Source: a virus
IMG/VR virus record: IMGVR_UViG_3300020190_000008
Length of the DNA stretch: 64,000 nucleotides
Direction: 5' to 3' (one strand)
Shown here: piece by piece, positions 7,660 to 11,595 of the stretch
How the letters are laid out: each line of letters opens with the position of its first letter
Position numbering within the stretch: position 1 is the first letter of the stretch
Translations under genes and position numbers: made by a program
The notes under the pieces: model-generated
The model's database searches: none
What the model was told of the DNA's origin: nothing
The model's input: only the letters and a program-made list of their open reading frames with translations

Positions 7660-8039
7660 TGAAACTTTACAATGTATATAATAATCTTATTGTTGAAATA
7701 GCGTCTATAAATACAATTGTAGATGCTATTAAGAAACGACAACGGGTTATTGTTTACTATGATGGTGATGAACCAGGTGGTAAAGGTTTAAGAATTATTG
7801 AACCGGTTTGTTATGGTTATAGTAAGGCTGGTAATCCAGTATTAAGGGCTTGGGATTTGGAAGGTTCTTCGCATAGAGCGTATCTGGGTAAAAAACCGTT
7901 ACCGAGTTGGAGAATGTTTAGAATTGATAAGATTATAACCTTTAAACCTACAACTGAAACTTTTGACGAACCAAGACCAAATTATAATCCAGCTGGAGAT
8001 AAAAGTATGACAAGAGTAATAATAAACGCAGTATTTTAA
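7659..8039 (+). CDS. Stand-alone WYL-domain protein
   Basis: YY...RIIEPVCYG...LRAWD...WRMFRIDKI, WYL-domain pattern; no HTH. Confidence 0.75.
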   Translation: MKLYNVYNNLIVEIASINTIVDAIKKRQRVIVYYDGDEPGGKGLRIIEPVCYGYSKAGNPVLRAWDLEGSSHRAYLGKKPLPSWRMFRIDKIITFKPTTETFDEPRPNYNPAGDKSMTRVIINAVF

Positions 8040-8044
8040 ATTGT

Positions 8045-8638
8045 ATGAAATCAGAACAAGATATAATAAACAAACTTATGATTTCCAAAAAAATAATGGA
8101 AAAACATAATGAAATCGGTAGGGGTGGTTTACCACAACAAACAAATTTTAACATACCACAGGTTGACGAATTTCAACCAGTACAAGGAAATTACAACATT
8201 CCAAAAGAATTTTTATTAGAAAGTGAAGTAAAAATCCAAAATAATGTTTCACAAGGGACAACAGAAGAAAGAATCAAAAATTCAAAGTTACCTGACGAAA
8301 TAAAAAGACTTATGTTGGAACACCCAATTGAACAACCAACATCTTATAATGGTAGTGCAACATTATCTGATGAACTTGTTGAAAAAGCATCAAGATTAAT
8401 GGGGACAAATCAAACTCAAACACAAAACCCAGTTACACAACAAAAAACACAACAAATAAATACTAAAATAGATTATAGTGAAATTAGAGATATTGTTAGA
8501 GAAACTGTAGAAGATGTGTTGAAAGAAAATGGTTTACTTGTTGAATCAACAACAAGGTCTAACGAAGCTTTTAAATTTAGAGTTGGTAATCATATTTTTG
8601 AAGGTAAAGTAACAAATATTAAAAAAATACAGAAGTAA
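8045..8638 (+). CDS. Hypothetical protein
   Basis: 197-aa ORF in the operon, followed by a terminator. Confidence 0.7.
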   Translation: MKSEQDIINKLMISKKIMEKHNEIGRGGLPQQTNFNIPQVDEFQPVQGNYNIPKEFLLESEVKIQNNVSQGTTEERIKNSKLPDEIKRLMLEHPIEQPTSYNGSATLSDELVEKASRLMGTNQTQTQNPVTQQKTQQINTKIDYSEIRDIVRETVEDVLKENGLLVESTTRSNEAFKFRVGNHIFEGKVTNIKKIQK

Positions 8639-8659
8639 TTTAGTTTTTGCGTATCATCG

Positions 8660-8688
8660 AACCTCAACATAATTGTTGAGGTTTTTTT
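8660..8688 (+). terminator. Rho-independent terminator
   Basis: aacctcaaca-taat-tgttgaggtt followed by a T-run. Confidence 0.8.
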
Positions 8689-8743
8689 ATATTTAATAAA
8701 TTACCTTTTGATATTACTGGACTATTTATAAATAAAAATAGTT

Positions 8744-9658
8744 ATGGGTAAAAAAATTAATTTAGATGAAGATTTAGTAATTAAAGAATATTTGTCAGGT
8801 AAAAGTTCTTTAGGGCTGGCAAAAGAATTTAATGTGTCAAAACCAGTAATTCTTGGAATTTTAAAAAAAAATAATGTAACAAAAAAACGAGATAGGTGTA
8901 AATCACTAAAAATTGAAAAGGTTGGTGAAAAGTATATAACAAAAAGGATTTGTCCTAATTGTAAAAAAGAAACTGATGTTGCAACAACACACCCAACAAC
9001 AACTTGTAGAAACTATTTTAAAGCGCTCAATGAAAATTCTGTATGTAAAAAATGTTTGAGTGATGTTATGGTTGGGGAAAGAAATCCATTTTATGGAAAA
9101 AAACATTCAAAAGAGACAAAAGAACAAATTTCTAAAAGTAGAATAGGTAAAGCGACTGGTAAAAATAATTCTATGGCAAATCCAGAACATAGGAAAAAGG
9201 TAGCTGATATGATTAGAAAAAAATGGAAAAATGGCGAAATGGAACACGTTAGAAAAATTTTTTCTGAAACAATCAAAGAAACCAAAAGATTGGGAAAAAT
9301 TAAATCTGTAATAAGATCTAAAACAGAAAAACAAATTTTAAATAAAATAAAAAAATTAGGATATGAAGTAATTCATTCTTTTAAAATTGATACAAAAATT
9401 TGTGATATTTTTTTACCACAATTAAACTTAATAATAGAATACAATGGTGATTATTGGCATTGTAACCCAAACAAATATAGTAAAGAATATTTTCATCAAG
9501 TAAAAGGTATGACCGCTGAACAATTGTGGGAATACGACAAAAACAAGATTGACTTAATAAAAAATAAGGGTTATAATTTAGAAGTGGTTTGGGAATCAGA
9601 TTATAAATCAGATAAAACCATAATAAATAATCTAATTAAAAAATATGACAGAAAATAG
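8744..9658 (+). mobile_element. Free-standing homing endonuclease (NUMOD3 DNA-binding motif plus Vsr/DUF559-like nuclease domain)
   Basis: GERNPFYGKKHSKETKEQIS (NUMOD3), CxxC pairs, C-terminal IEYNGDYWHCNP...VVWESD. Confidence 0.75.
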
Positions 9659-10892
9659 CCCCTTGAATGGTCGTGAAAGAATCAGAGTATTGGTTCTCCC
9701 AAGTGACCAGTCGGGGGTTGGCTGAGGTAAATTCCGATCAGTTGACCCCCACGTTAAATTACAAAATATGTATCCAGATGAATTCCATGTGGATATAGAT
9801 TACGAACCAAAAATAAATGATATAAATTACTGGAAAAAATATCAAATTGTTCATTTCCATAGAAGTATTGGTACCGATTACGATAATTGTACAAACATTA
9901 TTAAAATGTTAAGGTCATTGGGTATTATTGTTATTGCAGACATTGATGATTATTGGTTACCAACAAAAGAACACCCAATACATCAATTAATAATTCAAAA
10001 TAAATTACACGAAAAAATTATTGCAAATTTAAAAGTTTCTGATTATGTTATTACAACCACAGAATTATTTGCAAATGAAATTAGAAAGTTCAACAAAAAT
10101 GTTATTGTATTACCAAATGCTGTTGACCCAGCTGACCCGCAATTTAATGAACAAACACCAAAGTCTGATAAAATTAGAATTGGTTGGTTAGGTGGTTCTT
10201 CACACCTACACGATTTACAACTTTTAAATGGTATGGTTTCAAAACTATCAACGATTCAAGACAAGTTACAATATTACGTTTGTGGTTTTGATATTCGTGG
10301 TACTGTAACAGAAATTAACCAACAAACAGGACAAAAAACACAAAGATCAATAAAACCAGAAGAAACTGTTTGGGTTAAATACGAACAAATTTTTACGGAC
10401 AACTATAAAATTATAACACCAAAATATAAAGATTATTTAGATACATTTACAGAAAATGATTATCCTGGTGTTTTAGATGAGAACTATGTAAGGGTTTGGA
10501 CAAGACCAGTTACAAGTTATGCAAAAAACTATTCTAAATTTGATATTTCTTTAGCACCAATTAAAAACCATATTTTTAACAGAATGAAGTCTCAACTTAA
10601 AGTTATTGAAGCTGGTTTTTATAAAAAAGCTTTAATTGCTTCTAATGTTGGTCCATATACTATTGATTTAAAACATGCACTTAAAAATGGACAATTTACA
10701 GATGGAAACGCATTACTTGTAAATGAAAATAATAATCATAGTGATTGGGCAAAAAATATTAAAAAGTTAGTTGAAAACCCAAATATGATTACAGATCTTG
10801 GTGAAAGACTATATGAAACAGTTAAAGACAAATATGATTTAAACCGAGTGACAGAAACAAGAGCACAATTTTACAAATCTTTAATTAAATAA
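9645..10892 (+). CDS. GT-B glycosyltransferase with an in-frame TGA at codon 27 (9723-9725); the track calls only 9768..10892
   Basis: ATG 9645 gives MTENSPLNGRERIRVLVLPSDQSGVG*GKFRSVDPHVKLQNMYPDEF..., in frame with 9768. GT-B motifs DIDDYW, IGWLGGSSH, FNRMKSQLKVIEAG. Confidence 0.75.
9713..9750 (+). promoter_or_regulatory. 13-bp RNA hairpin enclosing the in-frame UGA (candidate recoding signal)
   Basis: GGGGGUUGGCUGA (9713-9725) pairs fully with UCAGUUGACCCCC (9738-9750), including 3 G-U pairs. Confidence 0.65.
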
Positions 10893-10893
10893 A

Positions 10894-11595
10894 ATGATAA
10901 ACATACCTATAACAAAAATATTATTCTTGGATATTGAAACCGTTGGTGGTTGTCCGGATTATGAATCTTGTCAAAAGTTTAGTCCAGAAATTGCAAATCA
11001 ATTTGATAAATATTTTGATTGGTTTTTAAAACGATTTCCAGAAGATTTGGGATTATCAAAAGATGAAGTTTTTAAAAAACGAGCAGCTCTTGTACCAGAG
11101 TTTGCAAAAATTGTTTGTGTATCAGTTGCATTTGTTTTAGAAAATGGCGAAACAAAAAAACAATCTTTTTCTGGTGAAGATGAAAAAAAATTATTAAAAG
11201 AAGTAAGAACATTACTTGATAGATGTGAAAAACTTGGATTCTATCTTTGTGGACATAATTTAAAAAATTTTGACATCCCAATGACAGCAAAACGAATGAT
11301 TATAAATGGGATTCGTCCTTCAAAAATTTTACCATCTTATGATACAAAACCTTGGGAAATAAAAGCAATTGATACAAAAGAAATTTGGCAATATGGTTCT
11401 TACACATCAATTGGTTCATTAGATTTATTATGTTCTTGTTTAGATATACCAACACCAAAGGATGGTGAAATAACTGGAGATTCAGTACACAAAGCATATT
11501 GGGAAGAACAAAAAATGAAAGAAATCACAGAATATTGTGAAAAAGATGTGGATGTTTTAATTGAAGCAATAATGAAATTAAAAAGTTTAGAATGA
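10894..11595 (+). CDS. DEDD 3'-5' exonuclease (PolB exonuclease-like)
   Basis: FLDIET, GHNLKNFDIP and YCEKDV exonuclease motifs. Confidence 0.85.
   Translation: MINIPITKILFLDIETVGGCPDYESCQKFSPEIANQFDKYFDWFLKRFPEDLGLSKDEVFKKRAALVPEFAKIVCVSVAFVLENGETKKQSFSGEDEKKLLKEVRTLLDRCEKLGFYLCGHNLKNFDIPMTAKRMIINGIRPSKILPSYDTKPWEIKAIDTKEIWQYGSYTSIGSLDLLCSCLDIPTPKDGEITGDSVHKAYWEEQKMKEITEYCEKDVDVLIEAIMKLKSLE

Follow-up and report, generated by a model that had tools for sequence, protein, structure and literature searches.

We identified a candidate ribosomal bypass near the start of a glycosyltransferase (GT) gene of a large uncultured phage, where ribosomes would stop-hop over a gap of a few nucleotides carried by an endonuclease-linked cassette. 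From comparison of natural alleles we give this reading a probability of about 0.8. The window analyzed is a stretch of viral DNA of 64,000 nucleotides, and the features that bear on the bypass are as follows.

8680–9760 (approximate), + strand: mobile cassette, comprising the endonuclease gene and the recoded 5' end of the GT gene (extension, stem-loop and gap), delimited by sliding identity
8744–9658, + strand: free-standing homing endonuclease gene, 304 amino acids, from the ORF list with Pfam and PHROG matches
9645–9722, + strand: upstream coding segment of the GT, 26 codons from Met to the take-off Gly, comprising an extension of 9–10 residues, strand beta1 and the Gly loop
9656–9672, + strand: 5' arm of the family-wide stem-loop, inside the N-terminal extension, identified from the duplex table, covariation and the window fold
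9705–9720, + strand: 3' arm of the family-wide stem-loop, in the codons for Asp-x-x-Gly-Val, its last base being the first base of the take-off codon
9713–9750, + strand: hairpin of an earlier note, with arms 9713–9725 and 9738–9750, kept only in the clade with TGA and a 6-nt displacement
9720–9722, + strand: take-off codon GGC (Gly), the rarest Gly codon in the window
9723–9725, + strand: in-frame stop TGA, the entire non-coding gap of the window allele
9726–9728, + strand: landing codon GGT (Gly), after which decoding would resume at AAA 9729
9729–10892, + strand: downstream coding segment of the predicted GT-B (GT4-like) enzyme, 387 codons to TAA

The GT frame opens with ATG at 9645–9647, overlapping the endonuclease ORF, which ends with TAG at 9656–9658, and joins a 374-codon ORF. 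As the earlier note on this DNA had stated, its sole interruption is the TGA between GGC and GGT, in the context GTT GGC TGA GGT AAA. Independent metagenome assemblies contain the same GGC-TGA-GGT junction in 13 distinct alleles, which rules out an assembly artefact as the origin of the stop. A nucleotide search of deposited phage genomes with the window gave no match. The segment upstream of the gap is 26–28 codons long in 39 insert loci, compared with 17–18 in insert-free alleles.

The GT protein matches PHROG 7162 (glycosyltransferase). Its Pfam matches to group-1 GTs fall below the cut-off, and a PDB sequence search with the endonuclease and GT proteins returned nothing significant. An AF2 model of the nearest insert-free homologue (pLDDT 92.1, pTM 0.89) finds the GT4 enzymes GlgM, PglA, BshA, MshA and PimA as its best Foldseek matches in the PDB, with E-values down to 6e-12. 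On this model the enzyme is of the GT-B, GT4-like type, with two predicted Rossmann-like domains and an N-terminus consisting of beta1 (residues 4–9), a Gly-rich loop (10–15) and helix 1 (16–31). This layout bears out the proposal that the upstream part supplies the first beta-strand of the GT-B fold. S11, D12, G15 and R20 are invariant, and the insert falls between the last two of these, where helix 1 has its N-cap; the gap interrupts the most conserved loop of the enzyme. If translation began at Met 9768, beta1, the loop and helix 1 would be lost together with the invariant residues, which argues that the N-terminus is needed.

Most homologues encode GVGKFRS without an insert, and thousands of them read PSDxSGVGKFRS. 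The uninterrupted motif is found in nuclease-free genomes and the stop-containing insert in nuclease-linked ones, as had been predicted. We recovered 51 distinct insert alleles in 26 versions, of which 21 came from a pattern scan that required a G-rich arm, an RGY take-off codon and a stop, and only the 30 retrieved by homology are unbiased for those three features. All follow one plan, in which a take-off codon (GGY or AGY) is followed immediately by a stop, and a landing codon then abuts K/Y/F-F-R-S; without exception, the landing codon is followed by the conserved K/Y/F of K-F-R-S. The stop lies directly 3' of the take-off codon in 51/51 alleles (21 of them found by the scan that required a stop) and is TGA in 28, TAA in 21 and TAG in 2. 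Of the insert alleles retrieved by homology, 30/30 have GGY or AGY as the take-off codon, whereas 27/58 insert-free alleles have NNY at the corresponding position (p=5e-8).

Displacements of 5, 6, 7, 8, 9, 10, 11, 12 and 13 nt occur, corresponding to gaps of 2–10 nt (3 in the window allele). In 33 of the 51 alleles the two halves of the gene are in frame, whereas in the other 18 (displacements of 5, 7, 8, 10, 11 and 13 nt) they are not. The take-off and landing codons correspond, their first two bases being identical in 50/51 alleles. Full codon identity is seen in 21/51, and the remainder differ at the wobble base. In the one mismatch (L040), an AGT take-off codon is paired with a GGC landing codon, and the first position of the codon would have to form a G-U pair. 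The two codons co-vary as Gly/Gly or Ser/Ser, with a joint switch to Ser in a separate clade. In the 18 out-of-frame alleles, the protein can be restored only if the tRNA re-pairs at the landing codon.

Read-through of the UGA by a near-cognate tRNA (for example Trp) would produce a full-length GVG-x-G-KFRS protein with two extra residues. This would suit the window allele and the other in-frame alleles, and gene callers set to code 4 gave a 415-amino-acid read-through product for the window's contig and related contigs. However, it does not account for the out-of-frame alleles or for the free substitution of TGA by TAA and TAG, and it gives the landing codon no reason to track the take-off codon. 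Moreover, the residues encoded by the two 12-nt gaps would be unrelated (Q-N versus P-T), and any inserted residues would lie between invariant positions at the helix N-cap. The window contains a single tRNA gene, Arg-tct, and no suppressor tRNA, and TGA is a normal stop that ends 14/57 long ORFs, including the two genes directly after the GT. The out-of-frame gaps, the three stops and the co-varying codons thus exclude read-through as the mechanism of the family, and we regard it as improbable overall. The tRNA content and the ordinary use of TGA also led us to reject an alternative code with TGA as Trp. Selenocysteine insertion or another TGA-specific event was rejected on the basis of TAA and TAG at the same place in relatives; more generally, the occurrence of all three stops disfavors any codon-specific reassignment or read-through.

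The coding sequence on both sides of the gap is conserved. The last 15 codons before the stop have a dN/dS of 0.12. The GT bodies of two alleles with a 13-nt displacement (L010 and L047) differ by 54.5 synonymous and 10.5 non-synonymous changes (dN/dS 0.04), and the 11-nt version has been retained over a pS of 0.5–0.7 with a dN/dS of 0.08–0.09. These values (0.04–0.12) indicate purifying selection on both halves of the GT, out-of-frame lineages included. Such selection argues against a broken gene, in which the stop would be a tolerated endonuclease lesion and the enzyme would be inactive or else start at Met 9768, lacking the first strand, loop and helix. A 374-codon ORF does begin at this Met and is what standard gene callers report. 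However, Met 9768 is present in 11/51 insert alleles and replaced by L, N, K, Q or F in the other 40, and in 25 alleles the first 15 codons after the gap contain no ATG, GTG or TTG. In addition, the upstream frame of 26–28 codons is intact in the 39 insert loci, the downstream segment is intact in every complete insert locus, and a dedicated covarying stem (described below) accompanies the gap in every allele. We consider a broken gene very unlikely.

Cases are known in which a homing endonuclease has split a gene and the parts reassemble (Manning and Atkins, bioRxiv 10.1101/2022.08.31.505936). By analogy with the topoisomerase encoded by T4 genes 39/60, a 26-residue peptide carrying beta1 and the loop might associate non-covalently with a separately initiated large fragment. 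However, no version has a start codon at or near the landing site, and the gaps are too short for an initiation signal. A split protein would also have no need for matched codons on either side of the gap or for a landing codon abutting the conserved Lys, and it appears even less probable than a broken gene.

We identified an RNA stem-loop immediately upstream of the gap that is specific to insert alleles. It is present in 51/51 insert alleles (21 of them found by the scan that required a G-rich arm) and in 0/58 insert-free alleles. In the window its predicted folding energy is -28.1 kcal/mol (z -3.1). The arm-arm duplex averages -24.8 kcal/mol in insert alleles and is at or below -16.8 kcal/mol in 51/51, whereas in insert-free alleles it averages -5.3 kcal/mol and is at or above -12.8 kcal/mol in 58/58. 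Covariation was assessed in two clades, in which 93–95% of cells are paired, compared with 23–53% when the partners are slid. Single base pairs of the stem take three or four pair types, and across clades there are six arm pairs that are complementary but differently written. The N-terminal extension that carries the 5' arm has a dN/dS of about 0.5, compared with 0.12 in the core, and looks to be constrained mainly as RNA. A nascent-peptide signal in the extension was rejected; its one argument is the presence of the extension, which evolves at the ratio just given.

The earlier note had proposed a different hairpin, at 9713–9750, as the bypass signal. This structure is real, with a 13-bp stem that includes three G-U pairs and has a minimum free energy of -24.8 kcal/mol (z -3.3 relative to dinucleotide shuffles). 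However, it is absent or weak outside the TGA clade, and within that clade its covariation is no better than in a shuffle control (93/500). We thus rejected it as a universal signal of the family, a role that falls to the upstream stem-loop. The two hairpins compete for one G-rich segment. It had also been suggested that the GC-ending codons of this stem reflect selection on structure. GGC and GGG (3.7% and 9.6% of Gly codons), CCC (4.7% of Pro) and TCG (5% of Ser) are indeed rare in the window, but the CCC and CAC of the 3' arm are common in insert-free alleles too. The GC content over 9650–9760 is 43–50%, compared with about 27% in the surroundings.

The G-run in the 3' arm invites comparison with prfB, which encodes RF2. 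In the +1 frameshift of prfB, the ribosome shifts by one base to an overlapping codon through anti-Shine-Dalgarno pairing; as in the GT cassette, the A site is occupied by a stop codon and there is a G-rich element 2–3 nt 5' of the P-site codon. The GT G-run differs in having a covarying upstream partner, with both arms changing, which points to a hairpin rather than to rRNA pairing. We set aside a prfB-like internal Shine-Dalgarno reading of the G-run because its partner in the N-terminal extension changes with it over six arm versions. Pairing of the G-run with rRNA may still contribute as an additional effect.

A strong, conserved stem that ends exactly at the break might also guide cleavage and ligation or editing of the mRNA, so that the gap is removed and the message is continuous before translation. 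The occurrence of endonuclease relatives next to group I introns in a related GT gene of other phages would fit removal at the RNA level. However, a search of Rfam over 8000–11500 found no family, intron or ribozyme, and we know of no splicing system that excises 2–10 nt. RNA removal would also leave the obligatory stop and the tRNA-matched codons unexplained, and we regard it as the least probable of the four alternatives.

The earlier suggestion of a stop-hop that restores GVGKFRS gains support from the out-of-frame relatives, the three stops and the co-varying codons. In such a hop, the ribosome would be positioned at GGC with UGA in the A site, and termination would be slow. The peptidyl-tRNA-Gly would release GGC, the mRNA would slide by 6 nt, and the tRNA would re-pair with GGU. 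Decoding would then resume at AAA, yielding a product with the normal GVGKFRS loop and the junction peptide VLVLPSDQSGVGK. The likely driving force is re-zipping of the stem-loop behind the ribosome; since the 3' arm ends exactly at the take-off codon, closure of the helix would pull mRNA from the exit channel. To our knowledge, there is no tested precedent for a stem that overlaps the E and P sites driving such movement. The occurrence and efficiency of the hop, the part played by the stem and the immunity discussed below are inferences. The window allele's own gap is in frame, and a hop is assigned to it by homology with its out-of-frame relatives.

The endonuclease contains a NUMOD3 motif (Pfam, E=1.6e-7) and a Vsr/PD-(D/E)xK-like C-terminal nuclease region, where the match to REase_MTES_1575 (Pfam, E=2e-4) is below the family cut-off. 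These are its sole Pfam matches. Its best PHROG is 3339, 'homing endonuclease' (E=1.8e-14). Full-length relatives are found at the same position in 29/47 assessable insert alleles, and the window's own record (127.7 kb, about 44% complete) contains one copy of the family. Among loci retrieved with the GT, a tblastn search located the endonuclease or a remnant at 14/15 insert loci, compared with 1/65 insert-free loci; for the fifteenth (L143), a 36-amino-acid remnant lies in L211, on the same contig. Endonuclease-positive alleles that have no insert also exist (L018, L019 and L021, and a group about 40% identical), so the gap is not the only way in which this nuclease family coexists with the GT gene.

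Sliding identity places recombination breakpoints at about 8680 and at 9740–9770. The window is 95–98% identical to other insert alleles over 9674–9740 and 78–87% identical beyond, whereas its identity to the nearest insert-free relative (L086) rises from 48–80% to 93–95% after about 9740. On the GT tree there are at least 12 well-supported changes of insert state, and the clustering of this state is no greater than that of shuffled labels. Nearly identical GT bodies are found both in loci that have the cassette and in loci that lack it (L146 versus L149, L151 and L153). These breakpoints and the scattered insert state agree with the mobile cassette put forward in the earlier note, and support the view that the endonuclease and the recoded GT 5' end behave as one, with horizontal spread.

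The arrangement resembles that of T4 gene 60 and the homing endonuclease MobA (Bonocora 2011, as cited in bioRxiv 10.1101/2022.08.31.505936). In both, a Gly take-off codon is followed at once by a stop and there is a matched landing codon; both also have extra N-terminal sequence and, 5' of the site, a stem-loop. In each system the gap interrupts a stretch of the target gene that is highly conserved, moves together with a free-standing homing endonuclease whose gene lies immediately upstream, and is retained where the nuclease has been lost. However, the gap of the GT cassette is highly variable and only 2–10 nt long (displacement 5–13 nt), compared with 50 nt in gene 60, leaving no room for an internal Shine-Dalgarno sequence or a forward barrier. 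The GT stem ends on the take-off codon, whereas that of gene 60 lies further upstream; a take-off hairpin is found in one GT clade only; and, unlike in gene 60, Ser codons can replace Gly. The host genes also differ (a GT4-like glycosyltransferase versus the split large subunit of topoisomerase II), as do the nucleases (NUMOD3 and Vsr-like versus the HNH enzyme MobA). In some gene 60 cassettes, however, VSR or GIY-YIG nucleases replace MobA (bioRxiv 10.1101/2022.08.31.505936), so nuclease type alone is not decisive for kinship. For MobA and gene 60, the gap has been shown to disrupt the endonuclease target in its own genome. By analogy, the probable value of the GT gap to the element is that it disrupts the target site and so protects its own genome from the adjacent nuclease. 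We saw no sequence homology between the GT and gene 60 cassettes.

Stop-hopping in E. coli, reportedly due to Weiss et al. 1987, is inefficient in its engineered form, at about 1%. Such synthetic constructs were the first cases of bypassing, in which a peptidyl-tRNA re-pairs with a like codon just past a stop (bioRxiv 10.1101/2022.08.31.505936). They share with the GT cassette the order of codon, stop and similar codon, the use of 8–9 or more nt for one amino acid, and independence of frame. In contrast, the GT arrangement is natural, is selected in an enzyme gene and has a dedicated RNA structure. The mitochondrial 'byp' elements of Magnusiomyces capitatus likewise interrupt essential genes with many short non-coding sequences whose take-off and landing codons match, and have apparently spread as mobile DNA (bioRxiv 10.1101/2022.08.31.505936). 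However, byps are 27–55 nt long, start with an unassigned sense codon instead of a stop and have no associated endonuclease.

For more than 30 years, efficient programmed bypass in phages has had a single example, T4 gene 60 with its direct homologues. According to a survey of 2022, no comparable case had been described in other phages and the gene 60 cassette "remains unique" (bioRxiv 10.1101/2022.08.31.505936), and we found nothing like the GT cassette in the literature searched. We think it likely that this is a second, independently evolved phage bypass family and the first natural stop-hop, in which hairpin re-zipping slides the mRNA by 5–13 nt and the endonuclease writes a harmless spacer into the catalytic loop of the GT. 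If so, an unrelated family with another gene and another nuclease would make the combination of endonuclease and bypass recurrent rather than a one-off. The system would be a minimal one of about 85 nt, and its dozens of natural variants in gap, stop, codon pair and stem would form a ready mutant set for studying how ribosomes release and re-engage mRNA. It would also allow a direct test of whether refolding of mRNA in the exit channel can drive ribosome sliding.

Genes of this kind are easily misannotated, as standard callers report only the downstream ORF or recover the gene by applying an incorrect genetic code. Separately, the introns that adjoin relatives of the endonuclease in the related GT gene of other phages are true group I introns.

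The glycosyltransferase (GT) frame is interrupted by a TGA between GGC and GGT, as the earlier note had described. The features of the locus, on the strand presented, are:

8744-9658: endonuclease ORF, 304 codons, overlapped in its last 14 nt by the GT frame
9645 (ATG) to GGC: upstream GT frame, 26 codons, ending at TGA
9656-9672 and 9705-9720: arms of an upstream stem-loop (fold of 9650-9725: -28.1 kcal/mol, z -3.1)
9723-9725: in-frame stop TGA, flanked by GGC and GGT
To TAA 10892: downstream GT frame, 387 codons, same frame as the upstream part

The 13-bp stem that the note had placed at 9713-9725 and 9738-9750 exists (fold of -24.8 kcal/mol, z -3.3), and the codons of this region are indeed rare, with GGC and GGG representing 3.7% and 9.6% of glycine codons and CCC 4.7% of proline codons in window usage. 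The segment 9650-9760 has a GC content of 43-50%, compared with 29.7% for the window overall. An alternative genetic code was rejected because 14 of the window's 57 long ORFs close with TGA, the next two genes among them; Arg-tct is the sole tRNA within the window. Likewise rejected was an assembly slip, since the identical junction is seen again in independent assemblies. Public gene calls for 9645-10892 and for the related contigs L001 and L002 give a truncated product of 374 aa or one of 415 aa, the latter arising where short contigs are called under code 4 (TGA = Trp). Both calls are annotation artefacts of the stop-containing gap. The window corresponds to G000:C1:38868-102867, minus strand, of a 127.7-kb IMG/VR record that is estimated to be 44% complete, so the phage genome is probably near 290 kb, which is jumbo size. 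These 127.7 kb contain only one copy of the endonuclease family.

A protein search recovered thousands of close GT relatives, most of which are 404 aa in length and read M-x-K-I-N-V-L-V-L-P-S-D-x-S-G-V-G-K-F-R-S. In a minority the N-terminus is longer and the two residues W-G are added, with TGA as the DNA codon at W. Homologous loci from related contigs (L numbers) were sampled, 160 by endonuclease or GT homology and 58 by DNA pattern. Removal of duplicates left 51 distinct insert alleles, which carry a take-off codon, the gap and a landing codon, and 58 distinct insert-free alleles. In 51 of 51 insert alleles, 21 of which derive from a pattern scan that presupposes a G-run, an RGY codon and a stop, the take-off codon is GGC, GGT, AGC or AGT and a stop (TGA in 28, TAA in 21, TAG in 2) follows at once. 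All 30 insert alleles retrieved through homology alone have an RGY take-off codon, and the insert-free alleles have NNY there in 27 of 58 (p = 5e-8). The landing codon is located directly 5' of a conserved K/Y/F-F-R-S in all insert alleles, and 18 of the 51 gaps are out of frame.

Distance from take-off to landing codon in the distinct insert alleles
5 nt: 5 alleles
6 nt: 30 alleles
7 nt: 3 alleles
8 nt: 5 alleles
9 nt: 1 allele
10 nt: 1 allele
11 nt: 3 alleles
12 nt: 2 alleles
13 nt: 1 allele

In the 5-nt versions the stop and landing codon overlap, as in GGT-TA-GGT. Bases 1 and 2 are identical between take-off and landing codons in 50 of 51 alleles, and both codons are AGY in a clade with serine at the junction position. 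The sole mismatch is L040 (AGT take-off, GGC landing), where a first-position G-U pair would remain possible. From these comparisons, one mechanism would account for the whole series of gaps, in which the peptidyl-tRNA lets go at take-off and pairs anew with the landing codon. The evidence is comparative throughout; for the window's own allele, which is in frame, we infer the hop by homology. L180, L186, and L216 carry the 11-nt version with an identical gap sequence, although over half of the synonymous sites have changed between their GT bodies. This points to either constraint on the gap itself or a recent transfer of the cassette between these backgrounds.

The upstream frame from ATG (26-28 codons) is kept in 39 insert loci, and the downstream frame (386-422 codons) is intact in every complete locus among them. 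The last 15 codons 5' of the stop have a dN/dS of 0.12 versus 0.165 in insert-free alleles, with dS saturated. L010 and L047, which share a 13-nt gap, differ by 54.5 synonymous versus 10.5 non-synonymous changes (dN/dS 0.04), three 11-nt carriers have a pS of 0.52-0.70 and a dN/dS of 0.075-0.093, and L014 and L211, with the 6-nt version, have a dN/dS of 0.044. Such substitution patterns indicate that strong constraint has acted on lineages that diverged with a common gap version, and that the genes are alive. Met 9768 is not conserved, and in half of the alleles the 15 codons past the gap include nothing that could serve as a start. An AF2 model of the insert-free relative closest to this GT, built with an alignment of 40 sequences (pLDDT 92.1, pTM 0.89), has a predicted GT-B fold closest to the GT4 enzymes GlgM, PglA, BshA, MshA, and PimA, with beta1 at residues 4-9, a loop at 10-15 and helix 1 at 16-31. 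Residues S11, D12, G15, and R20 are invariant across homologues of 40-85% identity, so the break lies within the motif of highest conservation, where helix 1 has its N-cap, and by this model initiation at Met 9768 would cost beta1, the loop and helix 1.

In the TGA clade, to which the window belongs, the hairpin of the earlier note folds strongly (-18 to -25 kcal/mol); the other clades have a weak one or none (-5 to -14 kcal/mol). Within the TGA clade 94% of its pairs are kept, mostly through one-sided G-U/G-C changes, and its covariation score was equalled by 93 of 500 shuffles. All insert alleles have a 5' arm in the N-terminal extension that pairs with the S-D-x-x-G-V codons, and this upstream duplex reaches 0-3 nt into the take-off codon. 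The arm-arm duplex has a mean energy of -24.8 kcal/mol in insert alleles (n=51, all <= -16.8) and -5.3 kcal/mol in insert-free alleles (n=58, none below -12.8), with no overlap between the classes. Pairing covers 95.3% and 93.3% of cells in the ungapped alignments of two clades, and only 23-53% for slid partners. Individual pairs vary as AU/UG/GC or as four pair types, and the covariation score in these alignments was reached by 0 of 500 shuffles. The arms have been rewritten jointly between clades, in six complementary versions. The extension is under weak protein constraint (dN/dS about 0.5), and its main role seems to be supplying the 5' arm. L003 (L003:28-1266) is the only allele with the extension but no gap, and its stem has decayed (-12.8 kcal/mol, p 0.15); this locus probably lost the gap secondarily. 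The G-rich segment of the window could pair with an upstream or a downstream partner, the latter being preferred in free RNA, and a ribosome on the take-off codon would cover the downstream partner.

In the proposed hop, UGA in the A site would be decoded slowly, and the inner part of the stem would re-form after its 3' strand clears the exit channel. The remaining 8-12 bp, ending at the take-off codon, would zip up and draw the message forward, with an extent of pull that would fit the observed displacements of 5-13 nt. At the first codon that matches, tRNA-Gly (or tRNA-Ser) would pair again and decoding would continue. A similar driver, pairing on the exit side, has been proposed for gene 60 of phage T4 (10.1101/2024.12.09.627546). 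The logic of gene 60 recurs in the GT family, but gene, nuclease type and gap length differ, with no recognisable sequence in common. Full-text literature searches for phage bypass cassettes returned only gene 60 and its homologues. A 2022 survey found homologues of that cassette all within topoisomerase genes, and stated that nothing similar was on record from other phages (10.1101/2022.08.31.505936).

The protein encoded upstream has a NUMOD3 motif, weakly matches a Vsr-like nuclease, and belongs to PHROG 3339, 'homing endonuclease'. The predicted link between nuclease and insert was borne out: by tblastn, an endonuclease or remnant lies directly upstream in 14 of 15 insert loci found by GT homology versus only 1 of 65 insert-free loci. 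The fifteenth, L143, has a 36-aa remnant in L211, another locus of that contig. Over 9674-9740 the window matches other insert alleles at 95-98% identity, and from about 9740 on its closest match is the insert-free L086 (93-95%). On the GT-body tree the insert state takes at least 12 changes over well-supported branches, and its clustering does not exceed that of shuffled labels. In about 18 insert alleles the nuclease has left a remnant only, or no trace, so the gap outlives the nuclease; among those inspected, the ORF usually seen is about 180-220 aa long and stops 90-240 nt short of the GT start. Full-length endonuclease relatives (38-53% identical) also occur at the equivalent site upstream of GT genes that have no gap, extension or stem (L018, L019, L021, L023-L029, L036-L038, L041-L043, L045, L050, and L052). 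These carriers may avoid self-cleavage through a different target or synonymous changes. By analogy with MobA, the gap might shield a genome from its own nuclease.

Other elements have invaded the same or related genes. The GT of the serine-codon clade (L022, L030, L048, and L054; e.g. L048:3624-5960) contains an intein-like insertion with a LAGLIDADG-type domain, located directly after a conserved G-W-L-G-G-S motif and followed by Cys, which places a hop cassette and an intein in one gene. A different GT-like gene carries a group I intron (Rfam RF00028) at L074:3527-3837 (93.5 bits) and L077:3582-3873 (89.8 bits), with distant endonuclease relatives just upstream of the gene. The intron follows S-D-H-P-L-T, the equivalent Gly-loop region, and thus the equivalent loop hosts an intron in some phages and the hop cassette in others.
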